This document shows positions 3,064 to 53,164 of a stretch of 64,000 nt of DNA, one piece after another; the stretch's first letter is position 1; every line of letters begins with the position of its first letter. Below the pieces are notes generated by a model. The model ran no database searches and was not told the DNA's origin. It was given only the letters and a program-made list of their open reading frames with translations. The DNA lies in the IMG/VR virus record IMGVR_UViG_3300037484_000374, positions 64,001-128,000 of that record, one strand, 5' to 3'. A program made the translations under genes and the position numbers. The DNA is from a virus.

Positions 3064-3071
3064 TATAAATA
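3064..3071 (+). promoter_or_regulatory. T4-type late promoter TATAAATA (others at about 9067, 25202, 33763, 42823, 46632, 47143, 50653, 51877, 56687)
   Basis: Exact gp55 consensus; most copies are intergenic and 10-35 nt upstream of a start codon or tRNA. A gp55 gene is present in the window. Confidence 0.8.
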
Positions 3072-3090
3072 TTAGAGAGGGTAATAATAA

Positions 3091-3462
3091 ATGGGCTGGA
3101 AAGATTTTGACATTGAACTTAATAAACAACAGGGTGGTGATGTAAAAGCCATGACTGATGTTGATGCTATAAAAAATTCCCTTACTAATATTGTACAAAC
3201 ATTCCAAGGTTCTCGGAGAATGATACCAAATGCGTTTGTTGATATATATAGAACATTGTTCGAGCCGATGGATAGATATACGGCTGAACGGCTTGGTAAT
3301 AACATATTAACAGCCATTGAGAAATGGGATGATAGAATCGTAATCGATGCCATTAACGTGGATGCTGATTATGATAATAATTTATATAAAATAATTATCG
3401 AATTTAGAATAACCACATCGGATGAAATTGAAACAATGGAAGTTATTCTGAGAGCTATATGA
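3091..3462 (+). CDS. gp25: Baseplate wedge subunit gp25
   Basis: AIKNSLTNIVQT.QGSRRM.P..F...LFEP...AIEKWDDRI is the GPW/gp25 signature. Confidence 0.9.
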   Translation: MGWKDFDIELNKQQGGDVKAMTDVDAIKNSLTNIVQTFQGSRRMIPNAFVDIYRTLFEPMDRYTAERLGNNILTAIEKWDDRIVIDAINVDADYDNNLYKIIIEFRITTSDEIETMEVILRAI

Positions 3463-4835: not shown

Positions 4836-6579
4836 TAACCTAACACCCACATTCTTAGAAACAGATTACAACACTTTAAAAGCAAAACTGACCCAGTTGA
4901 TGAAGAAATCTGATACTTTTAAAGATTATAATTACGAAGGAAGTAATATTTCAATGTTGATCGAATTGGTTTCGTATCTCGGTGATCTCAACACATTTTT
5001 CACAAATCTTCTTGCCAAGAATATGTATGAAGATACAGCGGATGTTTATGAAACAGTCCACAGACTCGTAAGACAAAAGGGCTATAACCCACTTGGATAT
5101 AAGTCATCACAGGTAACTATCACGGCGGCACTTTCAGGTGTTCAGGTTGGTGATGTTTTACAAGTACCGGCATGGACATCCATAGATACCGGACTAACCA
5201 CAGATAATGGGGATTCAATATATTACACCATCACACAAGATCATGATTTTACAGCTGACACTGCCCCGCTATATGAGTTTGATTTAATAGCAAGAGAGGG
5301 TGAGGTTAGTGAACTTGAGTATAAAGGAAGTGATCTGGTTGATAATATAATAATTCTACCATTTTCTACTTTTGACCATGGCTCATATCCTTTTGATATA
5401 CGAGCAATTCAATTAACCGTTAACGGTACAGCATGGACAAGAATATCTGATTTTTATGAAGACGTTACTGGTCTTATTGATCAAGATAATGTATTCATTT
5501 TTAACTATGATAAATATGAGAGATATGTTATTGAGTTCTCATCCTCAAGAAATGTTCCAGAAACCACAGATGATATCAACATTACAATGCTCAAATCAAA
5601 TGGTGTTGATGGTTCTATAGGTGCTGGAACAATCACAGAAGCAGATGATAACTTTGTTGTGAATGTTACAAGAGGGGTGATTTTATCTACAATGGGTAAG
5701 GATGATCTTGATTCATTCACAAATACAGAGGCATCTTTCGGGGCTGCAAATCCTGAAACAGTCGAGCAAATGAAAAGTAACTCAAAGGCGGTTGTTCATT
5801 CACAGCTGAGAAATGTTACTACTAAGGATTATATAAGTCATTTAAACGGTAGAGGTGATGTTGTTGCGAGTAACGCATGGGGAGAACAGGAAGAGAACGC
5901 TGGAAATACCCTAGAATATAATAAAGTATATATTAGCCTTATACCACCTCGTAGCGATGCAACATATTTCATTAACGGAACATTAGATATGGTTGCTACA
6001 ACGTGGGAGTATTCTCAAGACCATACGATAACAGGAACGATATACCTTCCATCACCATCTGGATATAATACAGATTTTAAAGAAGATGTTTTACAGTATC
6101 TTGAACCACGTAAGCACATAAACGTTTATGAAACCTTTGTAATTCCAAATCTTGTGTATTTTAGATTTGAAATAGGTTTAAGAATAAAACGTATCTACAA
6201 TTTCAATGATGTGAGACAGGCAGTTCTCGACAAATTAACATATTATTTTGATCCAATGTTCAGATCATTTGGTGAAAAAGTAAATTTCCTTGACATACAT
6301 GACTTCATTCTTAATGAGGATATCACATCGGACGATTATGACTTCGCAAATATTAGGGGTATTCAGAACTTGGTATTCAGGGATGTTGTTACATACACAG
6401 ACAGTTTATCCGGGGCCGACAAAGAAGAAATTTTTGAACCTTCAAGTTCTCAGTATCCACAGTTTGTAAATTCAGCGTATTCTGGATATGTTGATAACGT
6501 TATGCGACCAGTAAAACTTGATAGAAAACAATTTCCGGTTATAGCCGATAATCATTGTACCTTTATAAGCGAAGGATAA
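4828..6579 (+). CDS. gp6: Baseplate wedge subunit gp6
   Basis: DYNTLK..L...FKDYNYEGSNISMLIELVSY N-terminus and RNVTTKDY motif. Confidence 0.9.
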   Translation: MSNNLTPTFLETDYNTLKAKLTQLMKKSDTFKDYNYEGSNISMLIELVSYLGDLNTFFTNLLAKNMYEDTADVYETVHRLVRQKGYNPLGYKSSQVTITAALSGVQVGDVLQVPAWTSIDTGLTTDNGDSIYYTITQDHDFTADTAPLYEFDLIAREGEVSELEYKGSDLVDNIIILPFSTFDHGSYPFDIRAIQLTVNGTAWTRISDFYEDVTGLIDQDNVFIFNYDKYERYVIEFSSSRNVPETTDDINITMLKSNGVDGSIGAGTITEADDNFVVNVTRGVILSTMGKDDLDSFTNTEASFGAANPETVEQMKSNSKAVVHSQLRNVTTKDYISHLNGRGDVVASNAWGEQEENAGNTLEYNKVYISLIPPRSDATYFINGTLDMVATTWEYSQDHTITGTIYLPSPSGYNTDFKEDVLQYLEPRKHINVYETFVIPNLVYFRFEIGLRIKRIYNFNDVRQAVLDKLTYYFDPMFRSFGEKVNFLDIHDFILNEDITSDDYDFANIRGIQNLVFRDVVTYTDSLSGADKEEIFEPSSSQYPQFVNSAYSGYVDNVMRPVKLDRKQFPVIADNHCTFISEG

Positions 6580-33294: not shown

Positions 33295-33380
33295 GGGGCG
33301 AAGGCTTTCTACCAACACAATAGTATTGAAACGTTGCAATCGTGTTGCTTGAGTTCGAATCTCAAGACCCCCCCCCTTCA
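33295..33380 (+). pseudogene. Degenerate tRNA-like sequence, possibly Cys(GCA)
   Basis: Intact T-arm CTTGAG-TTCGAAT-CTCAAG and ACG-TTGCAAT-CGT anticodon arm; poor D-arm and acceptor, no CCA. Confidence 0.4.
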
Positions 33381-39781: not shown

Positions 39782-40399
39782 ATGTTATACACTGATTGGG
39801 ACATTTACGTTGCATTTAGGAACGCACAGGGCACTGCCAATGATAGAGGGTATCGCTTACCAAAAGATTGGAGTGCCCAACGTGCCAAAATGAAAAAAAC
39901 AAGTCTGGAATATCTTGATAGAACAGTTGGTATTTTTAACACTGCTTTGTCAAATATCGATATTGACAAATATATGAAGTGCGGGTTTGAAATATTCAAA
40001 ACTTTCAACTACCATATGTTCCTCAATAAAAAAGTCCTGAACTTGTATATTCAAAGGGATAAGATCGAGAAACGGAGTATACTGGTCAACAAGGAAAAGA
40101 TAGTTGAGAGTGTTAGGTTCATAAAGAATTATATGAAAGGTGTTGAAAATCGTAAAGGTTATAATACCTTAGAAACATATTGTAAATTAAGAGAGGGTAG
40201 CCAGAAGGTTGTTATTGGTCACTATAAAAAAGGACACATAGATAATATTACTATGGTATACTTCATAAACAATGGATATTTAGTGCTCGATGACGACGAA
40301 AGACATCAAGTGATCTATCTTATAAATCGATACAGAGATTTTATAGAGGTTCTAAAAACTGTAAAATCCTTTCTTACAAAAGTAGAGGTTGAGATATGA
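39782..40399 (+). CDS. Hypothetical protein (possibly replication-associated)
   Basis: 205-aa ORF upstream of gp32. Confidence 0.5.
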   Translation: MLYTDWDIYVAFRNAQGTANDRGYRLPKDWSAQRAKMKKTSLEYLDRTVGIFNTALSNIDIDKYMKCGFEIFKTFNYHMFLNKKVLNLYIQRDKIEKRSILVNKEKIVESVRFIKNYMKGVENRKGYNTLETYCKLREGSQKVVIGHYKKGHIDNITMVYFINNGYLVLDDDERHQVIYLINRYRDFIEVLKTVKSFLTKVEVEI

Positions 40400-41272
40400 A
40401 AGAATTAGAAGGGAAAAAGGTATATTTAAGACCCACAGGAAATAATACCAGACGAGAAATTATAGAGTTACAGGTCATATACCCTGAGTGTCAAGGCATA
40501 TACTCATTTCCGAGGATGGTGCCTTTGTCCTTTTGTGTTTTAGAGAAATAGAACAAACAAATATAGATGCGGGGCAGTTAGGTGAAATTTAAATACTGGA
40601 TATCTTGGATAATATTCCCATGGATACCTATGAGTTGGGAAAGCAAGACAGGTACTTTGAGATGTTCAATAGCACATTGGGCTAATAAGAATTTCCAGAA
40701 TTATGTATTCGTCAAATGTGGACAACCAAATAGGGCGAGAGAATGAGCAAAAAAGAACAAGGTGAATACCTCGAAAAGAGGAAAGAAAAGAAGTCGGAAG
40801 TAGAGGAACAAATGCTCTATGGTAATGATGAAACTATTTCCGAGAAGAAAAAGAAGCAAGGGGAGTATGAGGAGAAAACCTTAAATGAATAATCCATTAT
40901 TGGGGGAACCCCTGTGTTGGTTGAACATCTCATTCACATTTATTCTCATGGTTCTATTGGCGAAGCATGATGCCAAGTGGGTATCAGAAGACCCATTTTG
41001 GGTGTGTGTCACAAAGAATATGTTGGCTATGATTGTATTCTATTTGTTCATGTGTGTTGGTTTCTTTACATGTGTACAACCAATGGATATGGGAACAGTT
41101 ACCGTTATGCCAAACATCGAGAGAATGGTTGATGTACGATAAATTAAAGAAACTTTTGGAGATTAGGTTTACAAAAGGGCATAAATAGTGTATAATTTAA
41201 CATACTACGGTAATACTCATAATTCAATAGTGAATTACAGTAAAAAACAGTAAAAACAGTAGGAGAAATGGA

Positions 41273-42319
41273 ATGAGTAAATGGGTAGACGAAGAAAAGT
41301 ATAATGATTTTGCAGGGAAAAAGGAACAGGAGAAAGAAAAACAAGAGTCGGGGGAAGGTCAGCAAGGGTTTGCTAAAAAATTCAGACCATCTATGGGTTC
41401 AGCAGAGAAACCAAAAGAATACGAAATTCGTTTTCTTCCTGATACAGATGGTAGATTTTATGAAGAATATTTCTATCATGGATTCTATGTTGGTGAGTCA
41501 TTCAAATTCATCGGTTGTGAAAAAAATAAGGGTCTTGACAAATATTGCCCGTGGTGTGGAATCACTCAGATTCTATATCAGGGATCGGCCAATGACAAAA
41601 AGAAAGCCGGTGATTACAAACGTAAAAATCGATATGTTGGTAACGTTTATGTTATTGATGATCCACGGGATGCAACTATCGAGAACCCAGAATACAAGAA
41701 TTCAAAATCAGTGCGGCTCTATGAATTCCCAGCAACAGTGGAAACAAAACTCAAAAAAGAAGTAACAGATAATAAAAATGGTTACGGGTTGGCAGTGTTT
41801 GATCCTGAAAATGGATACAGTATGTTGCTTTCAATTGGAGCCAAGAAAGCAGATGCTAATAAAAAAGTATGGCCAGATTATGACCAGACCATGTTTGCTC
41901 GTAGACAATCATCCATTGCCGATGGTGCTGAACTCGAAGAGATTATGGCTCAGCGTTATTCTTTAGGTGATTTTATTGAAGCCTTGATGATTACTCCCGA
42001 TGCCCATCGTGAACTTCTTAAATCAGAAATGGTTTATGAAGATGTCGAGAGAGACTTTGAGTTGAAGTTGGGCGGTTTTAATAAACTGACTACCAAAGAC
42101 GAACCAGCAAAGGAACCAGCAAAGGCTTTTGATCCAAATCAGAATGTACCACCAGTAGAAAGTAAACCAGACATGGGTGATGATACTCCTACATATGGAG
42201 CCCCACCACCAAAAACACCCTATCCGATCCAATATGGTGATGATATGGTTGTTGATAGCACAGGGTCATCGGCTCTTAGCGAGGATGATGCGCTGTTGGC
42301 CAGCTTGAGAGATTTATAA
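41273..42319 (+). CDS. gp32: Single-stranded DNA-binding protein gp32
   Basis: IRFLP, YHGF, C...CPWC zinc site, KRK.RYVGNVYVIDDP, FDPENG, acidic tail. Confidence 0.9.
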   Translation: MSKWVDEEKYNDFAGKKEQEKEKQESGEGQQGFAKKFRPSMGSAEKPKEYEIRFLPDTDGRFYEEYFYHGFYVGESFKFIGCEKNKGLDKYCPWCGITQILYQGSANDKKKAGDYKRKNRYVGNVYVIDDPRDATIENPEYKNSKSVRLYEFPATVETKLKKEVTDNKNGYGLAVFDPENGYSMLLSIGAKKADANKKVWPDYDQTMFARRQSSIADGAELEEIMAQRYSLGDFIEALMITPDAHRELLKSEMVYEDVERDFELKLGGFNKLTTKDEPAKEPAKAFDPNQNVPPVESKPDMGDDTPTYGAPPPKTPYPIQYGDDMVVDSTGSSALSEDDALLASLRDL

Positions 42320-42367
42320 TTTAAAATAGTAAATTGGTAAAATGTGAGGTGGTAAAATGTGAGGTGG

Positions 42368-42414
42368 TAAAAAAAAAGGGGGGGGGATACATAGAAATAT
42401 GTTTCCCCCTTTTA
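42368..42414 (+). terminator. Terminator after gp32; related hairpin at 46237-46280
   Basis: A-run/G-run-CATAGAAATATG-C/T-run hairpin found at both sites. Confidence 0.75.
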
Positions 42415-42847
42415 CATTGACAAACGATATAAAATATATAGGTGATTAAGTGAACAAGAAATCGTGTTTTGATTGTAAAAATGCTGTCGTGGTACAAGGA
42501 GATGCATCGGTTGGTATTGGTGGAATATGTATTGATAACTGCCACGCACAATTAACAGAAGACCAGATGGAAGCATGTGAAGACTGTGATTGGATAGAAT
42601 ATAAATGTCCAGCAAAATGTGGTCACTTTGAACATATTATGGTTGAAGTGTGTGCCGAGTGTAAAAAAGAAATGAATACCCCATTACATGAAGTAGAGTA
42701 TTATGGGGTTGAATATGTTGATATTCCGGTATGTTCGGTGGAATGTAAAATCAAGTTTGATGAGACAGTTGGAAAAAAAATTAAAGAATATTAAAATAAT
42801 TTAGAAAAAATTTGAAAACTTATATAAATACAAATAGAGAAACTATT

Positions 42848-42925
42848 ATGAAAAACACAAAAACGACCTCGACATCCAGTAAACCAAGTAACCCCAATCA
42901 TAGTGATTGGCCGGTGTACGTGTAG
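42848..42925 (+). CDS. Putative attenuator leader peptide 1 (MKNTKTTSTSSKPSNPNHSDWPVYV)
   Basis: Starts 18 nt after late promoter 42823-42830; its stop codon overlaps the antiterminator strand; codons match the cluster-1 tRNAs. Confidence 0.75.
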   Translation: MKNTKTTSTSSKPSNPNHSDWPVYV

Positions 42926-42988
42926 AATTCTCTAAAGTAATGTTGTAACCATAAAGGGGAGAATCTACAAAGGTTTTTCCCTTTTTTT
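42921..42988 (+). promoter_or_regulatory. Attenuator 1: antiterminator (42921-42933 pairs 42958-42969) versus 14-bp terminator (42953-42984 plus U-tract)
   Basis: Base-pairing read directly from the sequence; the terminator ends 13 nt before the first tRNA. Confidence 0.8.
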
Positions 42989-43001
42989 GTGGAAAAAATA
43001 T

Positions 43002-43077
43002 GGGGTGGTGGTTCAGTAGTAGAGCACAAGGTTGAAGTCCTTGGATAGCGGGGCGCGATTCTCCTCACCCCTGACCA
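43002..43077 (+). tRNA. tRNA-Phe(GAA), degenerate T-loop and acceptor
   Basis: CAAGG-TTGAAGT-CCTTG; T-loop CGCGATT; CCA end. Confidence 0.65.
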
Positions 43078-43091
43078 AAAATTGAATATAT

Positions 43092-43174
43092 AGATTGTAC
43101 CGCCATGGGGCAAACTGCTTTTGAACGGCATGGGTGGGTGAAACCACGGGGTTCGATTCCTCTACTTTCTGCCA
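43092..43174 (+). tRNA. tRNA-Ser(TGA), atypical 8/4-like fold
   Basis: TGCT-TTTGAAC-GGCA, long variable arm GTGG...CCAC, G73, CCA. Confidence 0.7.
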
Positions 43175-43181
43175 AGAATAT

Positions 43182-43268
43182 AGTAGATTGACCGAGCGGC
43201 AAGGTATCTGGTTGCTAACCAGCAGTAAGGGTGACACCTCACAGGTTCGAATCCTGTATCTACTGCCA
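43182..43268 (+). tRNA. tRNA-Ser(GCT)
   Basis: AGTAGAT/ATCTACT acceptor, CTGG-TTGCTAA-CCAG, long variable arm, G73 CCA. Confidence 0.92.
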
Positions 43269-43281
43269 GAAATAAATGTAT

Positions 43282-43355
43282 GGGGGTGTAACTTAGTGGC
43301 AAAGTAACTGGCTTTTAACCAGTAAACGGGGGTTCGATTCTCCTCACCCCCACCA
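43282..43355 (+). tRNA. tRNA-Lys(TTT)
   Basis: Canonical cloverleaf; ACTGG-CTTTTAA-CCAGT. Confidence 0.93.
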
Positions 43356-43658
43356 AAAATTGAATAGTAACACTAACTATACACGGTAATATTACCAATG
43401 TTACAATGCAAGGGGGGGGGGGTACCATGAATAAGTTTTTTAGAAAACAGTTGGAAAAGTTGAAATCAGGTCGAGGTAAAAGTCTGACTTATAATAATAA
43501 ACATGGAAAGTTTAGAGTAAAATATTGTGATGGTGTAAAATCCAAACCAATGTTTTATGATATCGCAAAAAGATTCGCTGGCATATTCAATGGGAAAGTA
43601 TTTTACATTGAAGATGAGGATGAATATCAGCGGTATGCGTTATAATTGAGAATGATAT

Positions 43659-43735
43659 ACTCCTATGGTGTTAATTGGTAAGCATGTGTGGCTGTTAACC
43701 ACAGGGCCAATGTTCGAGTCCTCGTAGGAGTGCCA
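43659..43735 (+). tRNA. tRNA-Asn(GTT)
   Basis: TGTGG-CTGTTAA-CCACA; ACTCCTA/TAGGAGT acceptor; mismatched T-stem. Confidence 0.85.
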
Positions 43736-43743
43736 AAATTAAT

Positions 43744-43817
43744 GTATCTCTGGTGAAATGGTATCATGATTGGCTCCAACCCAATCGTTGTGGGTTCAAG
43801 TCCTACGAGGTACGCCA
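43744..43817 (+). tRNA. tRNA-Trp(CCA)
   Basis: ATTGG-CTCCAAC-CCAAT; G73 CCA. Confidence 0.9.
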
Positions 43818-43829
43818 TTAAAAATATAC

Positions 43830-43903
43830 GCTAAGAGTGGTTCTGGGAACCGATTTCTCTTGTAAGGAAGTTTTTGGGGGTTCGACTCCTCCTCTTAGCT
43901 CCA
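43830..43903 (+). tRNA. tRNA-Thr(TGT)
   Basis: GCTAAGA/TCTTAGC acceptor; loop CTTGTAA; short D-loop. Confidence 0.82.
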
Positions 43904-43959
43904 AGTTTACACACAACAAGTATTGTGGTATAATGATAGTAAATATAATAGGAGATGTA

Positions 43960-44421
43960 ATGACAAGATTTTTCAAAAGCATTAAAAATTTAATCAGGTG
44001 GTTTCCAGTAATATGGAATGACAAAGATTGGGACAACGCTTATATCTATACGATATTACATAAGAAAATATCAAATATGGAAGATTTTTTCAGAACCGAT
44101 GCTATTATCAGTGAAGCAGACAGAGTTGCCGATGAGATCAACACCGTGGTTTTAGCTCTCCAAAGACTTGTCAAAGATGAGTATGAAGAAATAGCCTTTG
44201 AAGACCATGATAAGAAATGGGGTAAAATAGGAATGATAGAAGCACCATGGAAGATGCACAAGTTTAACTTCACCAGAAAAAATGTCACCACAGAAGAGGA
44301 TAAGAAAATAGAAAAGCAGGAAATGCTTGCTTGTTTTGATAGAGTAGAAGCATATAGACAGTGTGATATTGATCTTGTATGTGATACCATGAAAGAAAAA
44401 ATTCAGGAATGGTGGGATTGA
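43960..44421 (+). CDS. Conserved phage hypothetical protein
   Basis: IKNLIRWFPVIWNDKDWD...WWD; own sigma70-type promoter at about 43906-43934. Confidence 0.7.
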   Translation: MTRFFKSIKNLIRWFPVIWNDKDWDNAYIYTILHKKISNMEDFFRTDAIISEADRVADEINTVVLALQRLVKDEYEEIAFEDHDKKWGKIGMIEAPWKMHKFNFTRKNVTTEEDKKIEKQEMLACFDRVEAYRQCDIDLVCDTMKEKIQEWWD

Positions 44422-44429
44422 AATAATAA

Positions 44430-44505
44430 CTGGGTGTAGCTGAGTTTGGTTTAGCACGGGCCTTGGGAGTCCGAGACGGAGGTTCAAATCCTCTCATCCA
44501 GACCA
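44430..44505 (+). tRNA. tRNA-Pro(TGG)
   Basis: CGGGC-CTTGGGA-GTCCG; C1-G72, A73 CCA. Confidence 0.93.
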
Positions 44506-44997
44506 TAAATTAAAATTATGAAAAAAGATGAATCATTAATACCAGAAGGTGCTTATTGTTACACAATAATAAAAACACCTTGCAAAGAAACAAATTGGTG
44601 CTTGAGAATAAAACCATGTCCTTATTGGAAATTAATTTATGATTTTCCAGAACAAATGAATGGATATTGTAAGTTCTTAAAAGAAGGTGATTGGACTCCA
44701 AAAGGTCTATCATTGTTATGTGAATAACCTTTGCGAGGTACGATAATGAACTCCCTAAAAAAGTTAAAAATGAAAAAGGTCAAGAATGTCCTTTCCTCAA
44801 AAGAGGATGTGAATAAAGTGCGCACCTCGCTGGAGCAAAAAACCTCTCAAGCCTTTGATGCGTTTGCCAAGTCGAAGCAAAAAGACCAGGAAATGGCACA
44901 TTTGAAATATCTTGATTAAAACTAACCTATTCTTGCTTATAAGCCCGGACATCTGAAATTAAGATTCTGGCTTTTTTTAATGCCATATTGAATGATT

Positions 44998-45047
44998 GAG
45001 ACTCTGGCAAGTCACATAAGCGAGTTCGATTCTCGTCAACACCGCCA
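44998..45047 (+). pseudogene. 3' half of a tRNA (G73; possibly Asp)
   Basis: GCGAG-TTCGATT-CTCGT-CAACACC-G-CCA; the 5' acceptor strand and D-arm are missing. Confidence 0.6.
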
Positions 45048-45349
45048 AGTTAAAAAAATATATGAATGATCTTATCAGAATAATACAAGAAAATCTTACA
45101 CATAGTCTACTAAAACCTGAATATAGAAAAATCAACGAAAATAGCCCAACGTATGGTCATTGTTATGCTGCCTCGGAATTTTTATGTAATTTAGAAGGAA
45201 AAGATTAAAGTTTCTTCCCCTATCATGGTAGAGATGAAAATTAGGTTGACATACCATAAACACTATGGTATAGTAGGTTATATAAGAATTTTAAATGGTC
45301 ATAAAGACCAAAAGGGGTCATAAAGACCAAAACTGTAAGGAGAAGATGT

Positions 45350-46204
45350 ATGAAAAATTTGTTAAGTGTATTGGTAGCATTGGTTGCATTTCTTGCTGTC
45401 AGTACAATCCCACAGGTATCTAGGGCATCAGATGACGTTACGATAATGTTTGAGATCGGGATCGGTATTGGTAAATCTGGAAAGGTTGCCAAGAAAGTTG
45501 ACGCTGATCCACGACTCTGTAAGAATCGTGACACTGGTCGGTTGATTTATTTTGGTGTTCGTGCAACATATGATGATGTTGAACTTCACCTTGCGCGTTG
45601 GCAGGGTGACGCTGACTGTTTGACATGTGAGCGTGACGCCTGGGCCTTGGGCCTTGGATATCAAATAACCAGTGATGATCATGGAACAATGGATTATGAC
45701 GATGTGTATACCACATGGACTCATGGACTTGCCTATACATGGGGTGAGGAAAAAAGATACGGGGGTGAGGAAAAAGAAAATACTAACTGGCGTTTACATG
45801 GTAACTTCCAGATTTTTAACCGCCTTGCTGTTGGGGTTCAGACAGAAGATGCAATGCTTGAAGTTGCCTTGAATCGTTATGGTTCATTTGATCCTAACCA
45901 CGGTGAAACATTCTTAACCGCTGGTCTTGGTCTTAACTTTTTGGAAGACACAACACATGTACCAATAGCCACACCTGAAAAAGAAATCGTTTACATCGAA
46001 GGGTCAGCGGGTAAAGACGGAACCGATGGTGAAGATGGTGAAGATGGTGAAGATGGTGAAGATGGTGAAGATGGTGAAGATGGTGAAGATGGTGAAGATG
46101 GTGAAGATGGTGAAGATGGTAACAAGGGTAATAATGGAAACGGTAACGGCTCAGAAGGTGCTTCCCCAGGTCAGGGTAATGGGGCCAACGATGATGAAAA
46201 TTAA
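45350..46204 (+). CDS. Signal-peptide protein: PagL-like outer-membrane beta-barrel candidate with acidic collagen-like tail
   Basis: Sec signal; amphipathic strands (NFQIFNRLAVG, NHGETFLTAGLG); C-terminal (GED)n. Confidence 0.55.
   Translation: MKNLLSVLVALVAFLAVSTIPQVSRASDDVTIMFEIGIGIGKSGKVAKKVDADPRLCKNRDTGRLIYFGVRATYDDVELHLARWQGDADCLTCERDAWALGLGYQITSDDHGTMDYDDVYTTWTHGLAYTWGEEKRYGGEEKENTNWRLHGNFQIFNRLAVGVQTEDAMLEVALNRYGSFDPNHGETFLTAGLGLNFLEDTTHVPIATPEKEIVYIEGSAGKDGTDGEDGEDGEDGEDGEDGEDGEDGEDGEDGEDGNKGNNGNGNGSEGASPGQGNGANDDEN
46025..46120 (+). repeat. Perfect 9-nt tandem repeat (GATGGTGAA), about 10.7 copies, encoding Gly-Glu-Asp
   Basis: Read directly from the sequence. Confidence 0.97.
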
Positions 46205-46660
46205 TTTATAAAGTAAAATAGATACATAAGAAATCAAAAAAAAGGGGGGGGGGGCATAGAAATATGTTCCTCTTTTTTTGATTTAATCACTTGACTTTTT
46301 CTACAGATGTGATATAATACATTATAAGATAAATTCAGTTGAGGGATACACCATGTTACATAAGAAAACAATGTTATTAAGAACCAAAGATAATACTACC
46401 ACTGTTAGAATAGGACTTTTCGGTAATAACTTCAACCCCGATGCTTGGTATCTCTTGAATAAAAGAAATGAGCCAGATGTGATTGTTAATACATCACCAG
46501 CAGGGGCCAGCAAGATCGTTCTCTCATACAAGACATTGGAAGGAAAGAGAGTCTATGATATCTATAAAGTTACATCAATAATAGATATTTGAGAAAAAAT
46601 TAAAATAATTTGAGAAAAAATAGAAAACTTATATAAATAGTAATAGGAGAATTAAATTCA

Positions 46661-46744
46661 ATGACACTCAGACAGACATATACTCTTTTAGAACAACGCA
46701 TACTTGTGATAGGTATTGTTGTGTATTGTGGAGAAATACCGTAA
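46661..46744 (+). CDS. Putative attenuator leader peptide 2 (MTLRQTYTLLEQRILVIGIVVYCGEIP)
   Basis: Late promoter 46632-46639 and SD AGGAG; its stop codon overlaps the antiterminator strand; codons match the cluster-2 tRNAs. Confidence 0.78.
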   Translation: MTLRQTYTLLEQRILVIGIVVYCGEIP

Positions 46745-46808
46745 GACTGGGGGATAAAATAACGATCACAGAACCCCTTGGTCTTAAAAAAGATTAGGGG
46801 GTTTTTTT
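46742..46808 (+). promoter_or_regulatory. Attenuator 2: antiterminator (46742-46753 pairs 46775-46786) versus 14-bp terminator (46772-46803 plus U-tract)
   Basis: Base-pairing read directly from the sequence. Confidence 0.8.
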
Positions 46809-46814
46809 ATTTGA

Positions 46815-46842
46815 TTGACACAGCTTAAAAATATGGTATAAT
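46815..46842 (+). promoter_or_regulatory. Sigma70-type early promoter (similar ones at about 12318, 16162, 18352, 21863, 38514, 41168, 43906, 45246, 46291, 53820, 60316)
   Basis: TTGACA-N16-TATAAT with TG extension. Confidence 0.75.
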
Positions 46843-47046
46843 AAAATATAGGTAAAAGATTAAACTTTATTTAACAGGCGAGTAGGATGTCAGTAACAAT
46901 CATAGTAGTAACAGTTGTTGTAGAAATAGCATTAGTATTGTTGTTTAAAGAGAAAAACTAGGTCTTTGTTCTATGTTGAGGTGTGTGGCTTGTAATCACA
47001 ATATATTGGGGCAGAGTATCCATCATCTCAACCAAAGAAATAATGA

Positions 47047-47121
47047 AGGGGCATAACACAATGGTAGTGTACATGACTTTGAATCGTGATATGGTGGGTT
47101 CGATTCCCCCTGCCCCCGCCA
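47047..47121 (+). tRNA. tRNA-Gln(TTG)
   Basis: CATGA-CTTTGAA-TCGTG; G73 CCA. Confidence 0.9.
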
Positions 47122-47160
47122 AAAATAAATGTGTATTTTTATTATAAATACTAATAATAT

Positions 47161-47237
47161 GGGAGAGTGGTGGAACTGGTATACATACTTCGCTTAGACC
47201 GAAGGTTTTAGGGGTTCGACTCCCCTCTCTCATACCA
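47161..47237 (+). tRNA. tRNA-Leu(TAG) with short variable arm
   Basis: CTTCG-CTTAGAC-CGAAG; A73 CCA. Confidence 0.82.
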
Positions 47238-47261
47238 GATTAATCATCGTGGAGATTAACC

Positions 47262-47435
47262 ATGTGCATATTTAAATGTAGTTGTGGAAGCAGGAAAGTT
47301 AAGATAGAATCTTTTTGTAATTGTCATTATGTAATCTGTATTAATTGTAAAAATACTACAGAGAATTGTACGAGTCCAGAAATGGCAGTATTGAAATGGA
47401 ACCAAAAAATTGATAGTATAAGTCATAGTAAATAA
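47262..47435 (+). CDS. Small Lar-like zinc-finger protein (57 aa, absent from the ORF track)
   Basis: CSCGS...YVICINC...AVLKWN; RBS GGAG. Confidence 0.6.
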   Translation: MCIFKCSCGSRKVKIESFCNCHYVICINCKNTTENCTSPEMAVLKWNQKIDSISHSK

Positions 47436-47452
47436 CCAAAAGGGAGATAGAT

Positions 47453-47842
47453 ATGAAGAAATTGTTTTTAGTATTGATAATATGTTTGAGTTTGTTGTTA
47501 CCGGTAGTTGCATCAGCAAACATGGAGTGTTTGGGTGAACCGCTCACGGATGGCGAAACCAATATAGTTAATATGGTTCACGAACTTCTTACAGCATACG
47601 GTGCTTATATAATACCACTTGCAAACGCAGTTAAACCGGAAGAGGTTTTGGCAATGACTCGACCCGATCTTCAAAGATTGGCAACCCAATTAACAGAAGA
47701 GGGTCTTTTACAAGTGGTTTCAGGTCAGATTGGTTATTACGAAGAGGGTGATGTTTGGATGTTCGTGATTGTCGAACCAACACTGGATAAGGAAGCGGCA
47801 TGTATTATCAGTGTAATGTTAAGAGAGAAGACAGCAAAATGA
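47453..47842 (+). CDS. Secreted hypothetical protein
   Basis: Signal peptide MKKLFLVLIICLSLLLPVVASA. Confidence 0.7.
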   Translation: MKKLFLVLIICLSLLLPVVASANMECLGEPLTDGETNIVNMVHELLTAYGAYIIPLANAVKPEEVLAMTRPDLQRLATQLTEEGLLQVVSGQIGYYEEGDVWMFVIVEPTLDKEAACIISVMLREKTAK

Positions 47843-48234
47843 AAATTTTATTCAGAATATTGATTGTATTAATGTTTTTGTCAGTACCAATGAGCGCACA
47901 GGCAAAAAAAGAATGTACCAGTTGTGGAACGCTGGGTGTTACCGAGCAGATTACGGTAAATGATATTAACAAACAAGTCACTGAGTATTGTAGTGAAAAT
48001 ATGGGCAAGATGAAAACGTGGCCAGTACATAGGGCCATCAAAAAAGCCGAGAAGGGGATCAATTTGATCGTCACACGGTTTATCGACAAGGGGTACGTTG
48101 ATGGTATCACTGTCGAGTTTAAAGTCGTTAGCGATGAGCTATGGCCCGATAGTAAAAAAGTTTATGTAGAATTAACCATTGTTCCAAATAATAAGAAACC
48201 GTCAAGGTGTGTTATCACGGGAAGGTTACAATGA
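47839..48234 (+). CDS. Secreted hypothetical protein
   Basis: Signal peptide MKILFRILIVLMFLSVPMSAQA. Confidence 0.7.
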   Translation: MKILFRILIVLMFLSVPMSAQAKKECTSCGTLGVTEQITVNDINKQVTEYCSENMGKMKTWPVHRAIKKAEKGINLIVTRFIDKGYVDGITVEFKVVSDELWPDSKKVYVELTIVPNNKKPSRCVITGRLQ

Positions 48235-48605
48235 TGAGAATTGTATATATACTCTTAGCACTGATGGTTTTTATGTCACCATCGTTTGAAAAACTTAGCG
48301 CATATTCTGGGATGAGTCAACAAACCAAGAACCAAGGAAGCAATACGAATGTTGTGGAGGTAAAAAAAGAAATTCGAGCATGGTGTGAATATTATTCAGA
48401 AAAAATACCATCAAGGTTAACGTTAATATTATTACAAAGTTCACTGGATGGTTATTGTAACTTTGCAGTTCGTGAGAGGATGGTATATTGGGTTGATAGT
48501 GTGGCATTTATTAAGAATAATGAGATTTGGGTAAAGACCATTATCATCCCTGTAAAGGGTGGAGAAAAAATAGAGTTTACGTTAAGACTCGTAACGAAGT
48601 GTTAA
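48231..48605 (+). CDS. Secreted/membrane-anchored hypothetical protein
   Basis: Hydrophobic N-terminus; ATGA coupling to the upstream gene. Confidence 0.65.
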   Translation: MMRIVYILLALMVFMSPSFEKLSAYSGMSQQTKNQGSNTNVVEVKKEIRAWCEYYSEKIPSRLTLILLQSSLDGYCNFAVRERMVYWVDSVAFIKNNEIWVKTIIIPVKGGEKIEFTLRLVTKC

Positions 48606-48615
48606 TATAAAATAT

Positions 48616-48705
48616 GGAGAGTGCAAATAAGGCTGGATTGGTCTGGCGGTTGGCTGTAAACCAACCCCTGATAGACATGGGGTTCGAATCCTTCACTCCC
48701 CACCA
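48616..48705 (+). tRNA. tRNA-Tyr(GTA), atypical 8/4-like fold with expanded D region
   Basis: GTTGG-CTGTAAA-CCAAC, long variable region, A73 CCA. Confidence 0.8.
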
Positions 48706-48718
48706 AATAGGAACAAGT

Positions 48719-48880
48719 ATGGATATTGAAAAATGTGAATGTGGAAGTAAGAATGTTATACCAGAACTTTTTTGCGGTAGATCATATATCTATTGTAAGG
48801 ATTGTGAAAAAACCACCGGCGAACATATATTACTCGATGAGGCCATAGGTGAATGGAATAAAATGTCCAGAGTGTGGTGA
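48719..48880 (+). CDS. Small Lar-like zinc-finger protein
   Basis: CECGS...YIYCKDC...EAIGEWN. Confidence 0.6.
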   Translation: MDIEKCECGSKNVIPELFCGRSYIYCKDCEKTTGEHILLDEAIGEWNKMSRVW

Positions 48881-49427
48881 TGAAGCAGTACAGGCATTAG
48901 TCAATGGAAGACCGGCCATGGTTTGTGAGAGTTGTATCAATGGAGTTATGACACTTACACAATGCCAATATTGTAATGAATATAGATACAAGAGACAACA
49001 AAAAGTTTGTGGCTGTAGGGAAACGATGAACGAATAATACATGTACCATCCAGACAATAGGTTTCTGGCAATGAGCTTACGAAACTCGTTTGATAGTCTC
49101 AACTCCTATATGGTACCCCAATTTAAAAAAGGATTCACAATGCCTATAAATTTGGAAATTGAAGATTATGAAAGTGTTTTAATTTTAGCAGATGATGAAA
49201 ATGGGAATTTAGTCTGGGAAGTATTGATGCCCGAAATTGATGAAAATGTAGACAGTGAAGGGGTTTCAATACCAACATTAATGTGCGCCGCTGTTGCAAC
49301 CAGAATGAAAGAAGATAAGGGGTTTGTTGATGATATGATAAACTGGTTTGATTGTTTCGTTTGTACTGAACCACCACCAGTTAAAGGTAGAATGAAAACA
49401 AGTTTGAGGAGAGTAAAATAATTTTAT

Positions 49428-49502
49428 GCTCTGATAGTTTAACGGTAGAACGGACAACTTATAGTTGTTTAATGGCCGGTTCGACTCCACCTCAGAGCAC
49501 CA
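49428..49502 (+). tRNA. tRNA-Ile(TAT)
   Basis: GACAA-CTTATAG-TTGTT; GCTCTGA/TCAGAGC acceptor; A73 CCA. Confidence 0.85.
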
Positions 49503-49624
49503 TTAAGGTTTACGGTATGATAAAAATATGTTTGAAATGTGATCAAAAAAAGGATATATCTGAATTTCATAAAAATTGCCATGCTGAATATCATCATTTG
49601 AAAAGATGTAAAAATTGAAAATAA

Positions 49625-49704
49625 GCGGGTATGATAAGCCAAGGGCATTGGTAAACTGGACACCAGCCAGTAAATAAGGGGTTCGACTCCCCCTTCCCGC
49701 TCCA
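49625..49704 (+). tRNA. Atypical Gly-like tRNA (possible ACC anticodon); identical to 17266-17345
   Basis: Same sequence as the 17.3-kb copy. Confidence 0.6.
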
Positions 49705-49716
49705 AAAGTTTTATAT

Positions 49717-49793
49717 AGTTCCGTAGCTTAATTGGCCAAGCATCTCTTTTACACGGAGAAGTCATAAGAGTTCGAGTCTCTTCGGAACCACCA
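49717..49793 (+). tRNA. tRNA-Val(TAC)
   Basis: TCTCT-TTTACAC-GGAGA; A73 CCA. Confidence 0.9.
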
Positions 49794-49803
49794 ATATTAA
49801 TAT

Positions 49804-49880
49804 AGCGGTGTAGCTCAGTGGTAGAGCCGTGGTCCTGATAAGGCACAGACTTAAAGTTCGATTCTTTTTCACCGCTACCA
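49804..49880 (+). tRNA. tRNA-Ile(GAT)
   Basis: AGCGGTG/CACCGCT acceptor; loop CTGATAA. Confidence 0.85.
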
Positions 49881-50451
49881 TTAAATAAAGGATGTTAATA
49901 TGGATGAATTTGTTAAAGTATTTTGTAGGGTTGTAAAGATGCATTGGTACACTTGGAAAGCAAAATATATTCTGGATTCTATTTTGGATGTATGTCGATG
50001 GATAATTTATATTGGTTTCCTTCCAAAGACATTAATTAACTGGACTGTTGGTTGTCATTTGGCAAACTCCAAAAGATTAAGGAAGGTTATTATAGAATCT
50101 GATTTTACAGACATCATAAAATTTGTAGATCGGGCTGATAGAGCCTATAGAAACCTTTACATCGAAGATTAAAGGAACAAAATGAGTAAGCTAAAAATTG
50201 TTTTGAGGATAGTAAGATTGTACAGATGTACTTTTATAGGAAAGTATTACATACCGTTTTTAAATAAAATCATGGATTGTTTTGTGTTTCTTGGAATTAT
50301 CCACTACGGATTTCACAACCATATTGTTGATAAGATAAAGGAAAACACACAAAGAATAATTGAGATCGCCATAGAAGGTGGTAACCATGACCTTGCTGAT
50401 ATCGCTGATGATCAGAATAAAACAGCAGACGATTTATATATTTAAATGTGA

Positions 50452-50524
50452 CGCAAAGTAGACCGGTGTCTGGTGAAGTCTCATAAGCTCTCACGCTGGG
50501 GTTCAATTCCCCACTTTGCATCCA
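50452..50524 (+). tRNA. tRNA-Met(CAT), initiator-like C1:A72 mismatch
   Basis: Loop CTCATAA; T-arm TGGGG-TTCAATT-CCCCA; CCA. Confidence 0.75.
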
Positions 50525-50535
50525 AATAATTAAAT

Positions 50536-50609
50536 GGGGATATAGTTTAGTGGCAGAACAGCTGTCTTTCTAACAGCCAGCAGGGGTTCGATTCCCCTTA
50601 TCCCTACCA
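50536..50609 (+). tRNA. tRNA-Glu(TTC)
   Basis: GCTGT-CTTTCTA-ACAGC; canonical arms; CCA. Confidence 0.88.
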
Positions 50610-50680
50610 AAAAAATTTATTTTGTATTTTAAATATTTTTCCATAAAATCCATATAAATACCAATACAAGGAGAAATAAT

Positions 50681-51790
50681 ATGGATGCATATTGGATAAA
50701 CCCACAAGGAAAAATATTACAATTGACAGGGGGGACACATATAAAGATAGTTTTTGATAATCCAAATAAGTTTGGATTATCAAAACAATCAATTCAAAAA
50801 ATATATGATAAATATAACGAAAATTATGGAATAGAAGGAAAGGCGAGAGATGAAATTATCACAAAGATCATCCAACGAGGCTATGTTCGTATCAGAGAAT
50901 ACAAGAACAGGTGGAGCGTTCAGGTATGGAAGATCAATAATAAAGTAAATGATACATTATGGGTATGGGCAAAGACCGTATTACCCAAAGCAAGTGATAA
51001 ATTTGCTGATATAGACATCACAGAAATTGGTGGAAGGAAAGGTTTAATGAGAACATCTTTATCAAAATTGGCAAGTGGTGGAAGTATTTCAGAAGAAGAA
51101 AAAGAATTGGCAGAACGGCATGTTCGTTTTGTAGACTCGATTGATGATTTTGATGATTATGTTCCAGAGACAGAAGAAGAAATATCAGAAAAATATATAG
51201 TCAATGAATCATCATTGTCAAGGCTATGGAAACACAATACAGAACACGATTGTGGGGCTTTAACGGCATGGCGTAGAGCAGAGGGTTGTGGTGAGGGTAG
51301 ATTATATACACATAAGGAAAACCAACAACGTAATAAATCACTCAGAGCAAAATTAATGGCCATGGGCTATTCTGTAACTGTGATATCTGGAAAATACCCA
51401 GAGGGTGGTAAAACATCCAAGGAAGATAGTTATTTTGTCGTTGACATGGATGACGATGGACAGCTTGAAAAGGATTTACTGAAACTCGGAGAAATCTTTG
51501 AGCAGGATTCCATATTGTTTGTTCCAAAGGGTGCTGTTGAAAGAAAACAGAAAGCACTTTTAATAGGAACAAATCATTGTCCTAATGGATTCCCTGGGTA
51601 TGGTAAAAAACTTGAATTTGAAAAGGGCAAATTTGGTGTTAATAGCCCTATATATACATCATATGTTAATGGCCGACCATTTATATTTGAAACTCTTGAG
51701 ATGACAACACTCCACAGGCAAGGTAATGGTATGGGGGTCTGGGCAACATATCTCATAGCAAAAAAAGGTTGGCAAGACATAGACGTATAA
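50681..51790 (+). CDS. Late two-domain hypothetical protein
   Basis: Late promoter 50653; C-terminal domain ESSLSRLW...ENQQRNKSL...FEQDSILF; terminator at about 51807-51856. Confidence 0.75.
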   Translation: MDAYWINPQGKILQLTGGTHIKIVFDNPNKFGLSKQSIQKIYDKYNENYGIEGKARDEIITKIIQRGYVRIREYKNRWSVQVWKINNKVNDTLWVWAKTVLPKASDKFADIDITEIGGRKGLMRTSLSKLASGGSISEEEKELAERHVRFVDSIDDFDDYVPETEEEISEKYIVNESSLSRLWKHNTEHDCGALTAWRRAEGCGEGRLYTHKENQQRNKSLRAKLMAMGYSVTVISGKYPEGGKTSKEDSYFVVDMDDDGQLEKDLLKLGEIFEQDSILFVPKGAVERKQKALLIGTNHCPNGFPGYGKKLEFEKGKFGVNSPIYTSYVNGRPFIFETLEMTTLHRQGNGMGVWATYLIAKKGWQDIDV

Positions 51791-51904
51791 AAATAAGAAC
51801 ACTTTGAAAACCCCTCTTTTTCTTTGATATCAAGGAATTGGGGTTTTTCTTTTTTGTCGTTATTTTAAATTTTTTATATAAATACTATTAAGGGAGTAAC
51901 GAAA

Positions 51905-52186
51905 ATGGAGATTTATGAAAAATATCTTCTTGAAACCTTACCGGATGGCTGGACAAAAGACAGCGTTCAAAAGTTTGCCAAGACGATAGCGGCAAGCACT
52001 GACAAGGAAGGTTTCTTCAAGAAGTGAGTGGAGAGAATGTCACAGCATTTGGATGATGCTGAAATGGTTAACGGTCTTTGTGCCAGTATGCTTGATAAAG
52101 CTAAAGGCAGTACATATTGGAGAGGTTCACATAAGACAGCGGCGCAGGCAAAGAAGGATGTAGCGGCACACCAAAATGTAAAATGA
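51905..52186 (+). CDS. Late 93-aa protein with one in-frame TGA (codon 41, 52025-52027): selenoprotein candidate or pseudogene
   Basis: Late promoter 51877 and SD AGGGAG; the frame continues 52 codons past the TGA; hairpin at 52043-52061. Confidence 0.65.
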
Positions 52187-52207
52187 TGCAATTAATGCAG
52201 AGGAAAT

Positions 52208-52417
52208 ATGATACAGGCAAAAATAATCAAGACAGAGACTGAGTACGACCATGCGCTGCTCCGCATTGATGAGTTAATGAATGCGACCCCAGACACGCCG
52301 GAAGGTGATGAGCTTGAGTTGCTTATTACCCTGATTGAGCTTTATGAGGCGAAAGAGTATGCCATTGACCTGCCGGATGCGGTCAGTGCTATAAAATTCC
52401 GTATGGAGCAACAGTAA
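52208..52417 (+). CDS. HigA-type antitoxin N-terminal domain only (no HTH)
   Basis: IIKTETEYDHALLRIDELMNATPDTPEGDELELL..LIELYE...AIKFRMEQQ, then stop; locally higher GC. Confidence 0.8.
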   Translation: MIQAKIIKTETEYDHALLRIDELMNATPDTPEGDELELLITLIELYEAKEYAIDLPDAVSAIKFRMEQQ

Positions 52418-52615
52418 AACAAAATTTTTTCATCAAAATATAAGAAAGAATTAAGCAAAATAGAACGAATAGTATTATTGAAAAATGGTGTGATGATCAT
52501 GGTATGAAATATAGCAATACAAAATATCACATCAGAATGGGAAACAATTATAGATGATATACTATAAAAAAACAGTAAAATATAAATTGTAAAATATGTA
52601 TAAAAAGGATGATAA

Positions 52616-53164
52616 ATGGTAAATGGTAAAGCAAAAGGAAGTGGATATGAGAGACAAATATGTAAACATCTCAGTATTTGGATACAAGGTACCGAAAAAC
52701 CATATCTTTTTTGGAGACAACCGGCAAGTGGTGGATTGTCAACTATAGACGGACGTAATAGTGAAAACTTATCAGGAGATATAAGGTCTATTAATACAAC
52801 TTCGGAATGGTTTTGTGGAATATATAGTGTTGAGATAAAGACCGGTTATCCTGATGCATCACTTGATAAGTTTTTAAAATATAATAAGTCTGACCCCCTT
52901 AGAGCGTTCTGGGTTCAGTGCATAGATGATGCAAATCTTTCCGAGAAAAGACCATTGCTCATCTATAAGAAGAAAGGGATGCCTACCCCTTGGGTTGGTA
53001 TTGATGAAAATGTAAAGAAGATTCTGGCCAAAGAATTAAAAGGTTTGAGGTTTGTGATGTTACATTGGGCAGAAGATTTACCGGACACATATCTTTATGA
53101 GTATAAGGAATTCTTTGATACGATAACACCCGAATTAATGAAGAAAAGGTTTAATATAAAATGA
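52616..53164 (+). CDS. Holliday-junction resolvase-like PD-(D/E)xK nuclease
   Basis: GKAKGSGYERQIC, SGG, GDI, VEIK. Confidence 0.75.
   Translation: MVNGKAKGSGYERQICKHLSIWIQGTEKPYLFWRQPASGGLSTIDGRNSENLSGDIRSINTTSEWFCGIYSVEIKTGYPDASLDKFLKYNKSDPLRAFWVQCIDDANLSEKRPLLIYKKKGMPTPWVGIDENVKKILAKELKGLRFVMLHWAEDLPDTYLYEYKEFFDTITPELMKKRFNIK

Follow-up and report, generated by a model that had tools for sequence, protein, structure and literature searches.

A candidate leader-peptide attenuator upstream of a tRNA gene block in an uncultured T4-like phage

The reasons for which phages carry tRNA genes, and the uses they make of them, are under debate; the proposals include compensation for codon usage, making good a host pool that is being degraded, and evasion of defences that cleave tRNAs. 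How such genes might be switched on is the question raised by a locus in an uncultured T4-like phage, which belongs to a clade with gp32, sigma70-type promoters and Shine-Dalgarno sites. The window analyzed here is the 64,000-nt stretch formed by bases 64001-128000 of the 170,951-nt IMG/VR virus record IMGVR_UViG_3300037484_000374, and positions are counted from its first base. All 12 confidently called tRNA genes of this genome lie in two blocks downstream of gp32, and the second block is preceded by a short open reading frame (ORF) and a terminator. An initial annotation, made from the sequence alone, had read this arrangement as an attenuator that depends on the ribosome and has a leader composed of codons for the tRNAs behind it. 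That reading is supported by a pairing kept in ten modules and by a composition match in all five leaders for which it could be scored. We put the probability at about 60% that the segment 46600-46808 is a ribosome-mediated leader-peptide attenuator that gates read-through from an upstream TATAAATA promoter into tRNA block 2.

The predicted unit is compact, with promoter, 27-codon sensor and terminator together spanning about 210 nt of the plus strand. It opens with a 40-nt AT-rich block (46600-46639) that ends in TATAAATA (46632-46639) and is presumed to be the promoter of the leader transcript, with a motif of the T4 late type. A Shine-Dalgarno-like AGGAG, read from the sequence (46645-46649), stands 11 nt before the ATG of leader ORF 2 (46661-46744), which comprises 27 codons and a TAA stop (46742-46744). 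Its codons include AUA three times, AUU, GAA twice, CAA, CAG, UAU twice, GUG twice and GUU, and further CUC, CUU twice, UUA, GGU, GGA, AGA, CGC and UGU. A hairpin within the 3' half of the ORF (46693-46720), present in both the minimum free energy and the centroid folds, is a possible pause hairpin. The intrinsic terminator stem (about 46770-46805; 16 pairs counted; −17.8 kcal/mol) is formed by a 5' arm (segment 3, 46773-46785), a loop (46786-46789) and a 3' arm (segment 4, 46790-46802), and its U-tract lies at 46802-46808. Immediately beyond it is a sigma70-type promoter (46815-46842: TTGACA, 16 nt, TG-TATAAT) that matches the consensus at 12 of 12 positions and carries the TG extension, and a second TATAAATA is found at 47143. 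Everything that the initial annotation had listed, namely TATAAATA, the ORF with its codon counts, the pairing described below, the terminator, the promoter and the TATAAATA at 47143, was recovered at its position.

What could make a switch of these parts is an alternative fold. The strand that begins at the leader stop codon (segment 2, 46742-46753), the putative 5' strand of an antiterminator, pairs with 46775-46786 over 12 bp, three of them G-U, and RNAduplex returned this pairing as the best between the region after the ORF and the terminator 5' arm. The duplex has a predicted energy of −17.6 kcal/mol, as compared with −11.2 ± 2.7 kcal/mol in 1000 dinucleotide shuffles (p 0.019), and in the nascent RNA the antiterminator hairpin reaches −14.4 kcal/mol. 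The same organization recurs upstream of the first tRNA block. The 40-nt block ending in TATAAATA is present in exactly two copies in the 171-kb genome, before leader 1 and before leader 2. Behind either copy come a short ORF, with a sequence of its own in each case, then a terminator and a block of tRNA genes. Module 1 (42791-42990, plus strand) has its TATAAATA block at 42791-42830, leader ORF 1 at 42848-42925, a stop-overlapping antiterminator strand at about 42920-42934, and a terminator with T-run at 42955-42984, with tRNAs following at 43002-44505. Its antiterminator duplex scored −14.1 kcal/mol (p 0.007).

Relatives of these two modules were accessible only through distant homology. Neither blastn of 46200-47400 against cultured phages nor gp32 as a single-protein query against IMG/VR gave a match, and an alignment-based search was needed; loci were thus collected from IMG/VR, JGI metagenomes and Logan contigs via an alignment of gp32 homologues. 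The module was found in ten loci, comprising leaders 1 and 2 and eight from relatives whose gp32 is 43-56% identical to that of the window (designated L141, L148, L126/L157, L188, L190, L192 (G003), L191 (G002) and L165). In these relatives a short ATG-initiated ORF of 20-39 codons is followed by a strong terminator and usually has TATAAATA upstream, the place of which is taken in L165 by a TATAAT box. A tRNA gene lies within about 20-320 nt downstream in seven of the ten modules. One further locus, L119/G001, carries tRNAs downstream of gp32 without a module in front of them. Two other probes were of little use: a 79-aa neighbor protein had one near-identical match, on a 3.6-kb contig, and an exact 17-mer of the promoter block retrieved at least 116 loci in IMG/VR, all of them chance matches without the extended block.

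In each module, the stretch from 12 nt before the stop codon to the hairpin was searched against the terminator 5' arm plus loop. The best duplex covered the stop codon in 10/10 modules, and the spacer between stop codon and hairpin was confined to 26-35 nt. When the nascent RNA was taken to end at the terminator loop, the stop-codon strand was paired with the terminator 5' arm in all ten (−8.8 to −23.3 kcal/mol). Individual duplex p values for eight modules, with 1000 shuffles each, ranged from 0.001 to 0.32 and gave a Fisher's combined p of 3.5e-7. The stems have no sequence relationship to one another, and each change of stop codon (UAG in four modules, UAA in four and UGA in two) is mirrored in the triplet that pairs with it. 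The earlier suggestion that attenuator 2 follows the logic of attenuator 1 despite a different sequence is thereby borne out across ten modules, which keep the pairing with dissimilar stems. Controls were taken from the same phages and from elsewhere. Among 33 ordinary gene-end terminators, which follow long ORFs, the arrangement was found in none; the mean best duplex there was −4.8 kcal/mol and the strongest −7.8 kcal/mol, with the stop codon overlapped in 33%. A blind screen for the whole arrangement yielded nothing from the 159 terminators of unrelated viral loci (1.04 Mb) and ten hits from the 163 terminators in 0.85 Mb of relatives, nine of which were members of the family. Because the alternative pairing is conserved with covariation and absent both from control terminators and from unrelated loci, we regard it as a selected feature. 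Taken alone, leader 2 makes only a modest case against a chance arrangement of short ORF, terminator and complementary stretch (duplex p 0.019, composition p 0.006); with ten loci showing covariation and a blind screen without a hit in 1 Mb of control DNA, however, coincidence is barely credible.

A selected pairing of this kind implies that a ribosome at the stop codon decides between two folds, and the following mechanism is proposed for the attenuator. Segment 2, which holds the stop codon, would compete with segment 4 for pairing to segment 3. With a ribosome footprint as generally known, the 26-35 nt spacer would allow a ribosome parked at the stop codon to mask segment 2 while staying off the terminator. 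If the leader were translated fast, the ribosome would reach the stop codon and cover segment 2, the terminator would form, and transcription would end before the tRNA genes. If the ribosome instead lagged on the Leu, Ile (including AUA), Val, Gln or Glu codons, segment 2 would be free as segment 3 emerged, the antiterminator would form, and RNA polymerase would enter the tRNA genes. Given the leader's bias toward the amino acids that the block's own tRNAs carry, scarcity of those tRNAs is the likely signal. Feedback would result, with synthesis of the cognate tRNAs going up when Leu, Ile, Val, Gln and Glu codons are decoded slowly, and the phage would probably make more of the block 2 tRNAs only when ribosomes read the matched codons slowly.

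The bias of the leaders was evaluated in the five modules with a reasonably known downstream tRNA set. The residues matching the module's own cluster numbered 19/24 in leader 1 (binomial p 2.4e-5), 15/26 in leader 2 (Q, L, I, V and E; p 5.9e-3), 14/19 in L188 (p 1.4e-3), 20/27 in L126 (p 5.2e-4) and 18/24 in L165 (p 5.5e-5). Each of the five leaders fitted its own cluster best, and the true assignment ranked first of 120 permutations. The score of leader 1 was the highest of 998 short ORFs in the genome and was reached by none of 35,075 24-residue windows of real proteins. In leader 2 the matches are concentrated in codons 9-21, with 12 in 13 codons. Unmatched residues tend to fall in the last five or so codons of the leaders, where a stalled ribosome would still cover the antiterminator strand. 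That the leader 1 match merely reflects an A/C-rich RNA tract was rejected as an explanation, since it fails for leader 2, L188, L126 and L165. At the level of the family, then, an attenuator is well supported computationally, and the codon match of leader 2 is moderately supported.

Comparison of homologous leaders is informative on whether this bias carries the signal. L188 is the closest relative of leader 2, with which it shares the end of the 5' untranslated region before the ATG and the C-terminal end of the peptide; its middle codons specify N, T, K, H, F, D and Q, and its block encodes His, Phe, Phe, Gln, Lys, Gln, Asp, Asn, Asn and Thr. What chiefly separates L126 from leader 1 is Ile (three AUA) and Asp, and two tRNAs of the L126 locus, located with Rfam before their identity was known, are Ile(UAU) and Asp(GUC). 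Where the tRNA set is very large, leader diversity is unusually high: the 35 residues of the G002 leader include all 20 amino acids (p 8e-4), and the 38 residues of the G003 leader include 19 of them (p 0.03). Leaders with small blocks nearby fall below the expected diversity. These data bear on an alternative in which the attenuator is real and ribosome-dependent but reports general translation capacity or the coupling of transcription and translation, the leader composition being incidental or inherited. The structural evidence is independent of codon identity and would suit such a device equally; moreover, the match of leader 2 is only moderate, and the leaders beside the large clusters show no enrichment, their 30/38 and 30/35 matching residues being the background expectation. 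On the other hand, the alternative does not account for the best fit to the own cluster in 5/5 leaders and the first rank among 120 permutations, nor for the way in which the residues distinguishing leader 2 from L188, and likewise leader 1 from L126, are exactly those that distinguish their clusters, and the high diversity of leaders beside large clusters is what a codon sampler would be expected to show. We therefore consider a composition-blind attenuator unlikely, though deserving of attention, and retain the codon-matched attenuator as the preferred reading.

Several observations weigh against that reading or limit it. The match of leader 2 is moderate, since 29 of the 998 short ORFs of the genome score as high, and peptides rich in L, I and V are common. 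Read strictly, the six tRNAs decode 10/26 codons of leader 2 (p 0.04), a number that rises to 14/26 if U34 reads whole four-codon boxes. The initial annotation had matched the AUA codons to tRNA-Ile(UAU), but three AUA in 26 codons have a p of 0.06, AUA being the commonest Ile codon of the genome (3.47% of codons); as a specific sensor for that tRNA the triplet of AUA codons is not significant alone. Several leaders keep residues in a shared order, which shows common descent, so that the five composition matches are not five independent events. In L126 and L165, protein genes lie between the terminator and the first tRNA. AGGAG is rather far from the ATG at 11 nt, and it is near the expected 5' end of a transcript initiated from TATAAATA. 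The pairing of segment 2 with a putative segment 1, which would tie it up and give termination when the leader is untranslated, reaches −7.2 kcal/mol in leader 2 (p 0.68) and is marginal across the family (p 0.04 to 0.68), the partner being the Shine-Dalgarno/AUG region in five modules. As this pairing is not significant for leader 2, no four-segment design of the trp type is claimed, and the module may have three segments, unlike the four of trp. Finally, transcription from the perfect sigma70-type promoter that follows the terminator can escape the switch. The initial annotation had also suggested that the unmatched Arg and Cys codons of leader 2 record lost tRNAs, for which no support was found. 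Of the Cys-like remnant that it had placed near 33.3 kb, a T-arm-like stem-loop, a G/C-rich acceptor-like end and GCA in a loop are indeed present at about 33295-33375, but the stretch was called neither by relaxed ARAGORN nor by Rfam (E up to 1).

The caution that the promoter might bypass the terminator was well founded, the perfect match at 46815-46842 being confirmed. Because a sigma70-type promoter follows the terminator, the attenuator would govern only transcripts that come from the upstream promoter. The stretch from 46815 to 47045 had been taken for an insert, yet it is not peculiar to this locus: a sigma70-type promoter directly follows the terminator also in L141, L148, L165 and L192, that is, in at least five modules, and this recurrence suggests that the promoter is part of the design. 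A plausible division of labor is that the inner promoter provides constitutive early expression and the outer one expression controlled by demand. Concerning the class of the outer promoter, 36 of 55 genomic copies of TATAAATA are intergenic, as compared with 25% of non-coding sequence, and the motif precedes a gp25-like baseplate wedge gene (3064-3462) as well as dUTPase, amidoligase-like and other non-structural genes. The gp25-like context is consistent with a T4-type late promoter without establishing the class.

The same promoters lend themselves to a plainer account, in which a small and perhaps late protein gene with an ordinary terminator is followed by an independent early tRNA promoter, so that synteny rather than regulation links the parts. 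It would agree with the recurrence, in at least five modules, of a sigma70-type promoter just past the terminator and with ordered residues that are common across relatives, such as Trp with Asp or Asn near the C-terminal end. It is also favored by a unit repeated nearby at 42366-42450 and 46237-46320, composed of an A-run, a G-run hairpin terminator and a sigma70-type promoter, and by the resemblance to terminator-plus-promoter cassettes that flank genes in T4-type phages. The latter include the promoter-early stem-loop (PeSL) cassettes, which are not known to have a leader ORF or an alternative pairing linked to a stop codon; like them, 46770-46842 consists of a terminator-like stem-loop and then an early sigma70-type promoter, and the G-run hairpin and promoter units at the two positions above are similar. 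A plain gene, however, leaves unexplained both the composition match and the complementarity of the stop-codon strand, which is seen in 10/10 modules with covariation and a spacing of 26-35 nt and in 0/33 controls. The peptides, moreover, vary from 20 to 39 residues with many indels, and the conserved Pro-Asn and Asn-Trp-Asp codons of leader 1, L126 and L141 overlap an RNA hairpin inside the ORF, which may explain why the codons of the Trp region are conserved there. On balance, we regard an unregulated small gene as quite improbable.

The Trp motif also invites the idea of a ribosome stall caused not by hungry codons but by the nascent leader peptide, which would respond to a small molecule or factor as TnaC and the Erm leaders do. 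Trp next to Asp or Asn occurs 6-10 residues before the stop codon in six of ten leaders. Leader 2 and L188 are without Trp, however, the motif overlaps the RNA hairpin just described, and no ligand logic ties such a response to tRNA genes; this explanation is accordingly given a very low probability, and the codon-sensing attenuator is the reading we compare with known systems below.

The closest parallels are the leader-peptide attenuators of enterobacteria, namely trpL, hisL, leuL, thrL, pheL and the multivalent leaders of ilvGMEDA and ilvBN. Like the leaders of those amino-acid operons, the phage module has a short, putatively translated ORF upstream of an intrinsic terminator, with the position of the ribosome predicted to pick the fold, and complementarity between the terminator 5' arm and a strand close to the stop codon. 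Its codons are likewise enriched for what the operon supplies, and several amino acids are sampled, as in ilv. Unlike those leaders, the phage module would regulate tRNA genes in place of enzymes, so that the quantity sensed and the product are the same class of molecule; it contains a mixed codon "checklist" and no run of a single codon; its stop codon lies inside the antiterminator strand; a bypass promoter follows its terminator; and its segment 1:2 pairing is not significant. The description "ilv-leader-like" in the initial annotation is thus a fair analogy for a multivalent leader but not a statement of family membership, as no Rfam leader matched. A cmscan of 40000-53000 (E up to 1) detected no match to Trp_leader, His_leader, Leu_leader, Thr_leader, Phe_leader or T-box and returned tRNA plus spurious matches only. 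The E. coli pheST attenuator regulates phenylalanyl-tRNA synthetase, senses one amino acid and is chromosomal; the phage module would resemble it as leader-peptide attenuation of a component of the translation apparatus, a likeness of logic, the Rfam scan having given no leader match. T-box riboswitches bind uncharged tRNA directly via a specifier codon and need no translation. They share with the proposed switch the sensing of tRNA status and an antiterminator that controls terminator read-through, and differ from it in that the module here has a translatable ORF and no T-box match.

The record has 35% G+C and an estimated completeness of 71%, and its gp32-type single-strand DNA-binding protein, encoded at 41273-42319, is only 25-30% identical to that of cultured cyanomyoviruses, the nearest named relatives. 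Block 1 (43182-44505) encodes tRNAs for Ser(GCU), Lys, Asn, Trp, Thr and Pro. Block 2 (47047-50609) encodes, on the plus strand and as called by both ARAGORN and Rfam, tRNA-Gln(UUG) at 47047-47121 and Leu(UAG) at 47161-47237, which would be the first genes under the control of attenuator 2, then Ile(UAU) at 49428-49502, Val(UAC) at 49717-49793, Ile(GAU) at 49804-49880 and Glu(UUC) at 50536-50609. A weak tRNA-Phe(GAA) at 43002-43072 is above the Rfam cut-off (35 bits). Degenerate or unusual tRNA-like stretches with good T-arms and acceptor stems occur at 43083-43174, 44990-45060, 48615-48701, 49628-49703 and 50452-50524; Ser(UGA), "Gly(ACC)", "Met(CAU)" and one with an unreadable anticodon are calls of relaxed ARAGORN only. 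The relaxed calls at 48615-48701, 49628-49703 and 50452-50524 had no Rfam support and were excluded from the statistics; the Ser(UGA) call was likewise set aside.

A number of other features surround the modules. Each of the repeated G-run hairpin units opens a parallel series of one ORF, the TATAAATA block, a leader, a terminator and tRNAs, and the repetition of this hairpin-promoter unit at 42366-42450 and 46237-46320 suggests that the two tRNA modules arose by duplication. The stretch 45350-46204 encodes a 284-aa protein with a signal-peptide-like N-terminal end, a long Gly-Glu-Asp collagen-like repeat and weak matches to phage tail-fiber families. Between the sigma70-type promoter and tRNA-Gln, a 24-codon mini-ORF (46887-46961) specifies Q, L, I, V or E at 15 of 23 residues (p 0.001), holds five GUA and two AUA codons, and is followed by a −20.8 kcal/mol stem (46974-47035) without a U-run. 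This mini-ORF may act as a further sensor, serving promoter-proximal transcripts, or just encode a small hydrophobic peptide. Directly 3' of the last tRNA, 50681-51790 encodes a 369-aa protein with an S-adenosylmethionine lyase-family domain (Pfam PF23780, E 8e-11), which may be an anti-restriction S-adenosylmethionine lyase. In L188, a tRNA with anticodon CUA (6150-6224), labeled Pyl by ARAGORN, is amber-reading, and the stop codon of the L188 leader is UAG; this tRNA, if active, could read through the leader's stop and alter the behavior of the switch.

A full-text search of the literature turned up no account of phage tRNA genes under leader-peptide control. The contribution of the present analysis is a T4-like clade in which homologous leaders and tRNA blocks change together, and for this reason the sequence of a leader could help to predict which tRNAs a block supplies or needs. 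If the proposed attenuator is real, the phage would measure the decoding of the codons mirrored in its leader and make tRNAs on demand, that is, by supply and demand and not constitutively. Tentatively, and with the odds against so broad a statement, codon-matched leader attenuators might form a general control layer of phage tRNA blocks that evolves with them, in which the speed of decoding a "checklist" ORF switches on replacement tRNAs when the host pool fails, including when host defence nucleases cut particular tRNAs; the element would then double as a built-in sensor of tRNA-targeting immunity besides codon demand. The module is a portable part that is testable in reporters. Should the reading hold, classical attenuation, as seen in amino-acid operons and one synthetase operon, would extend to tRNA genes and to viruses.

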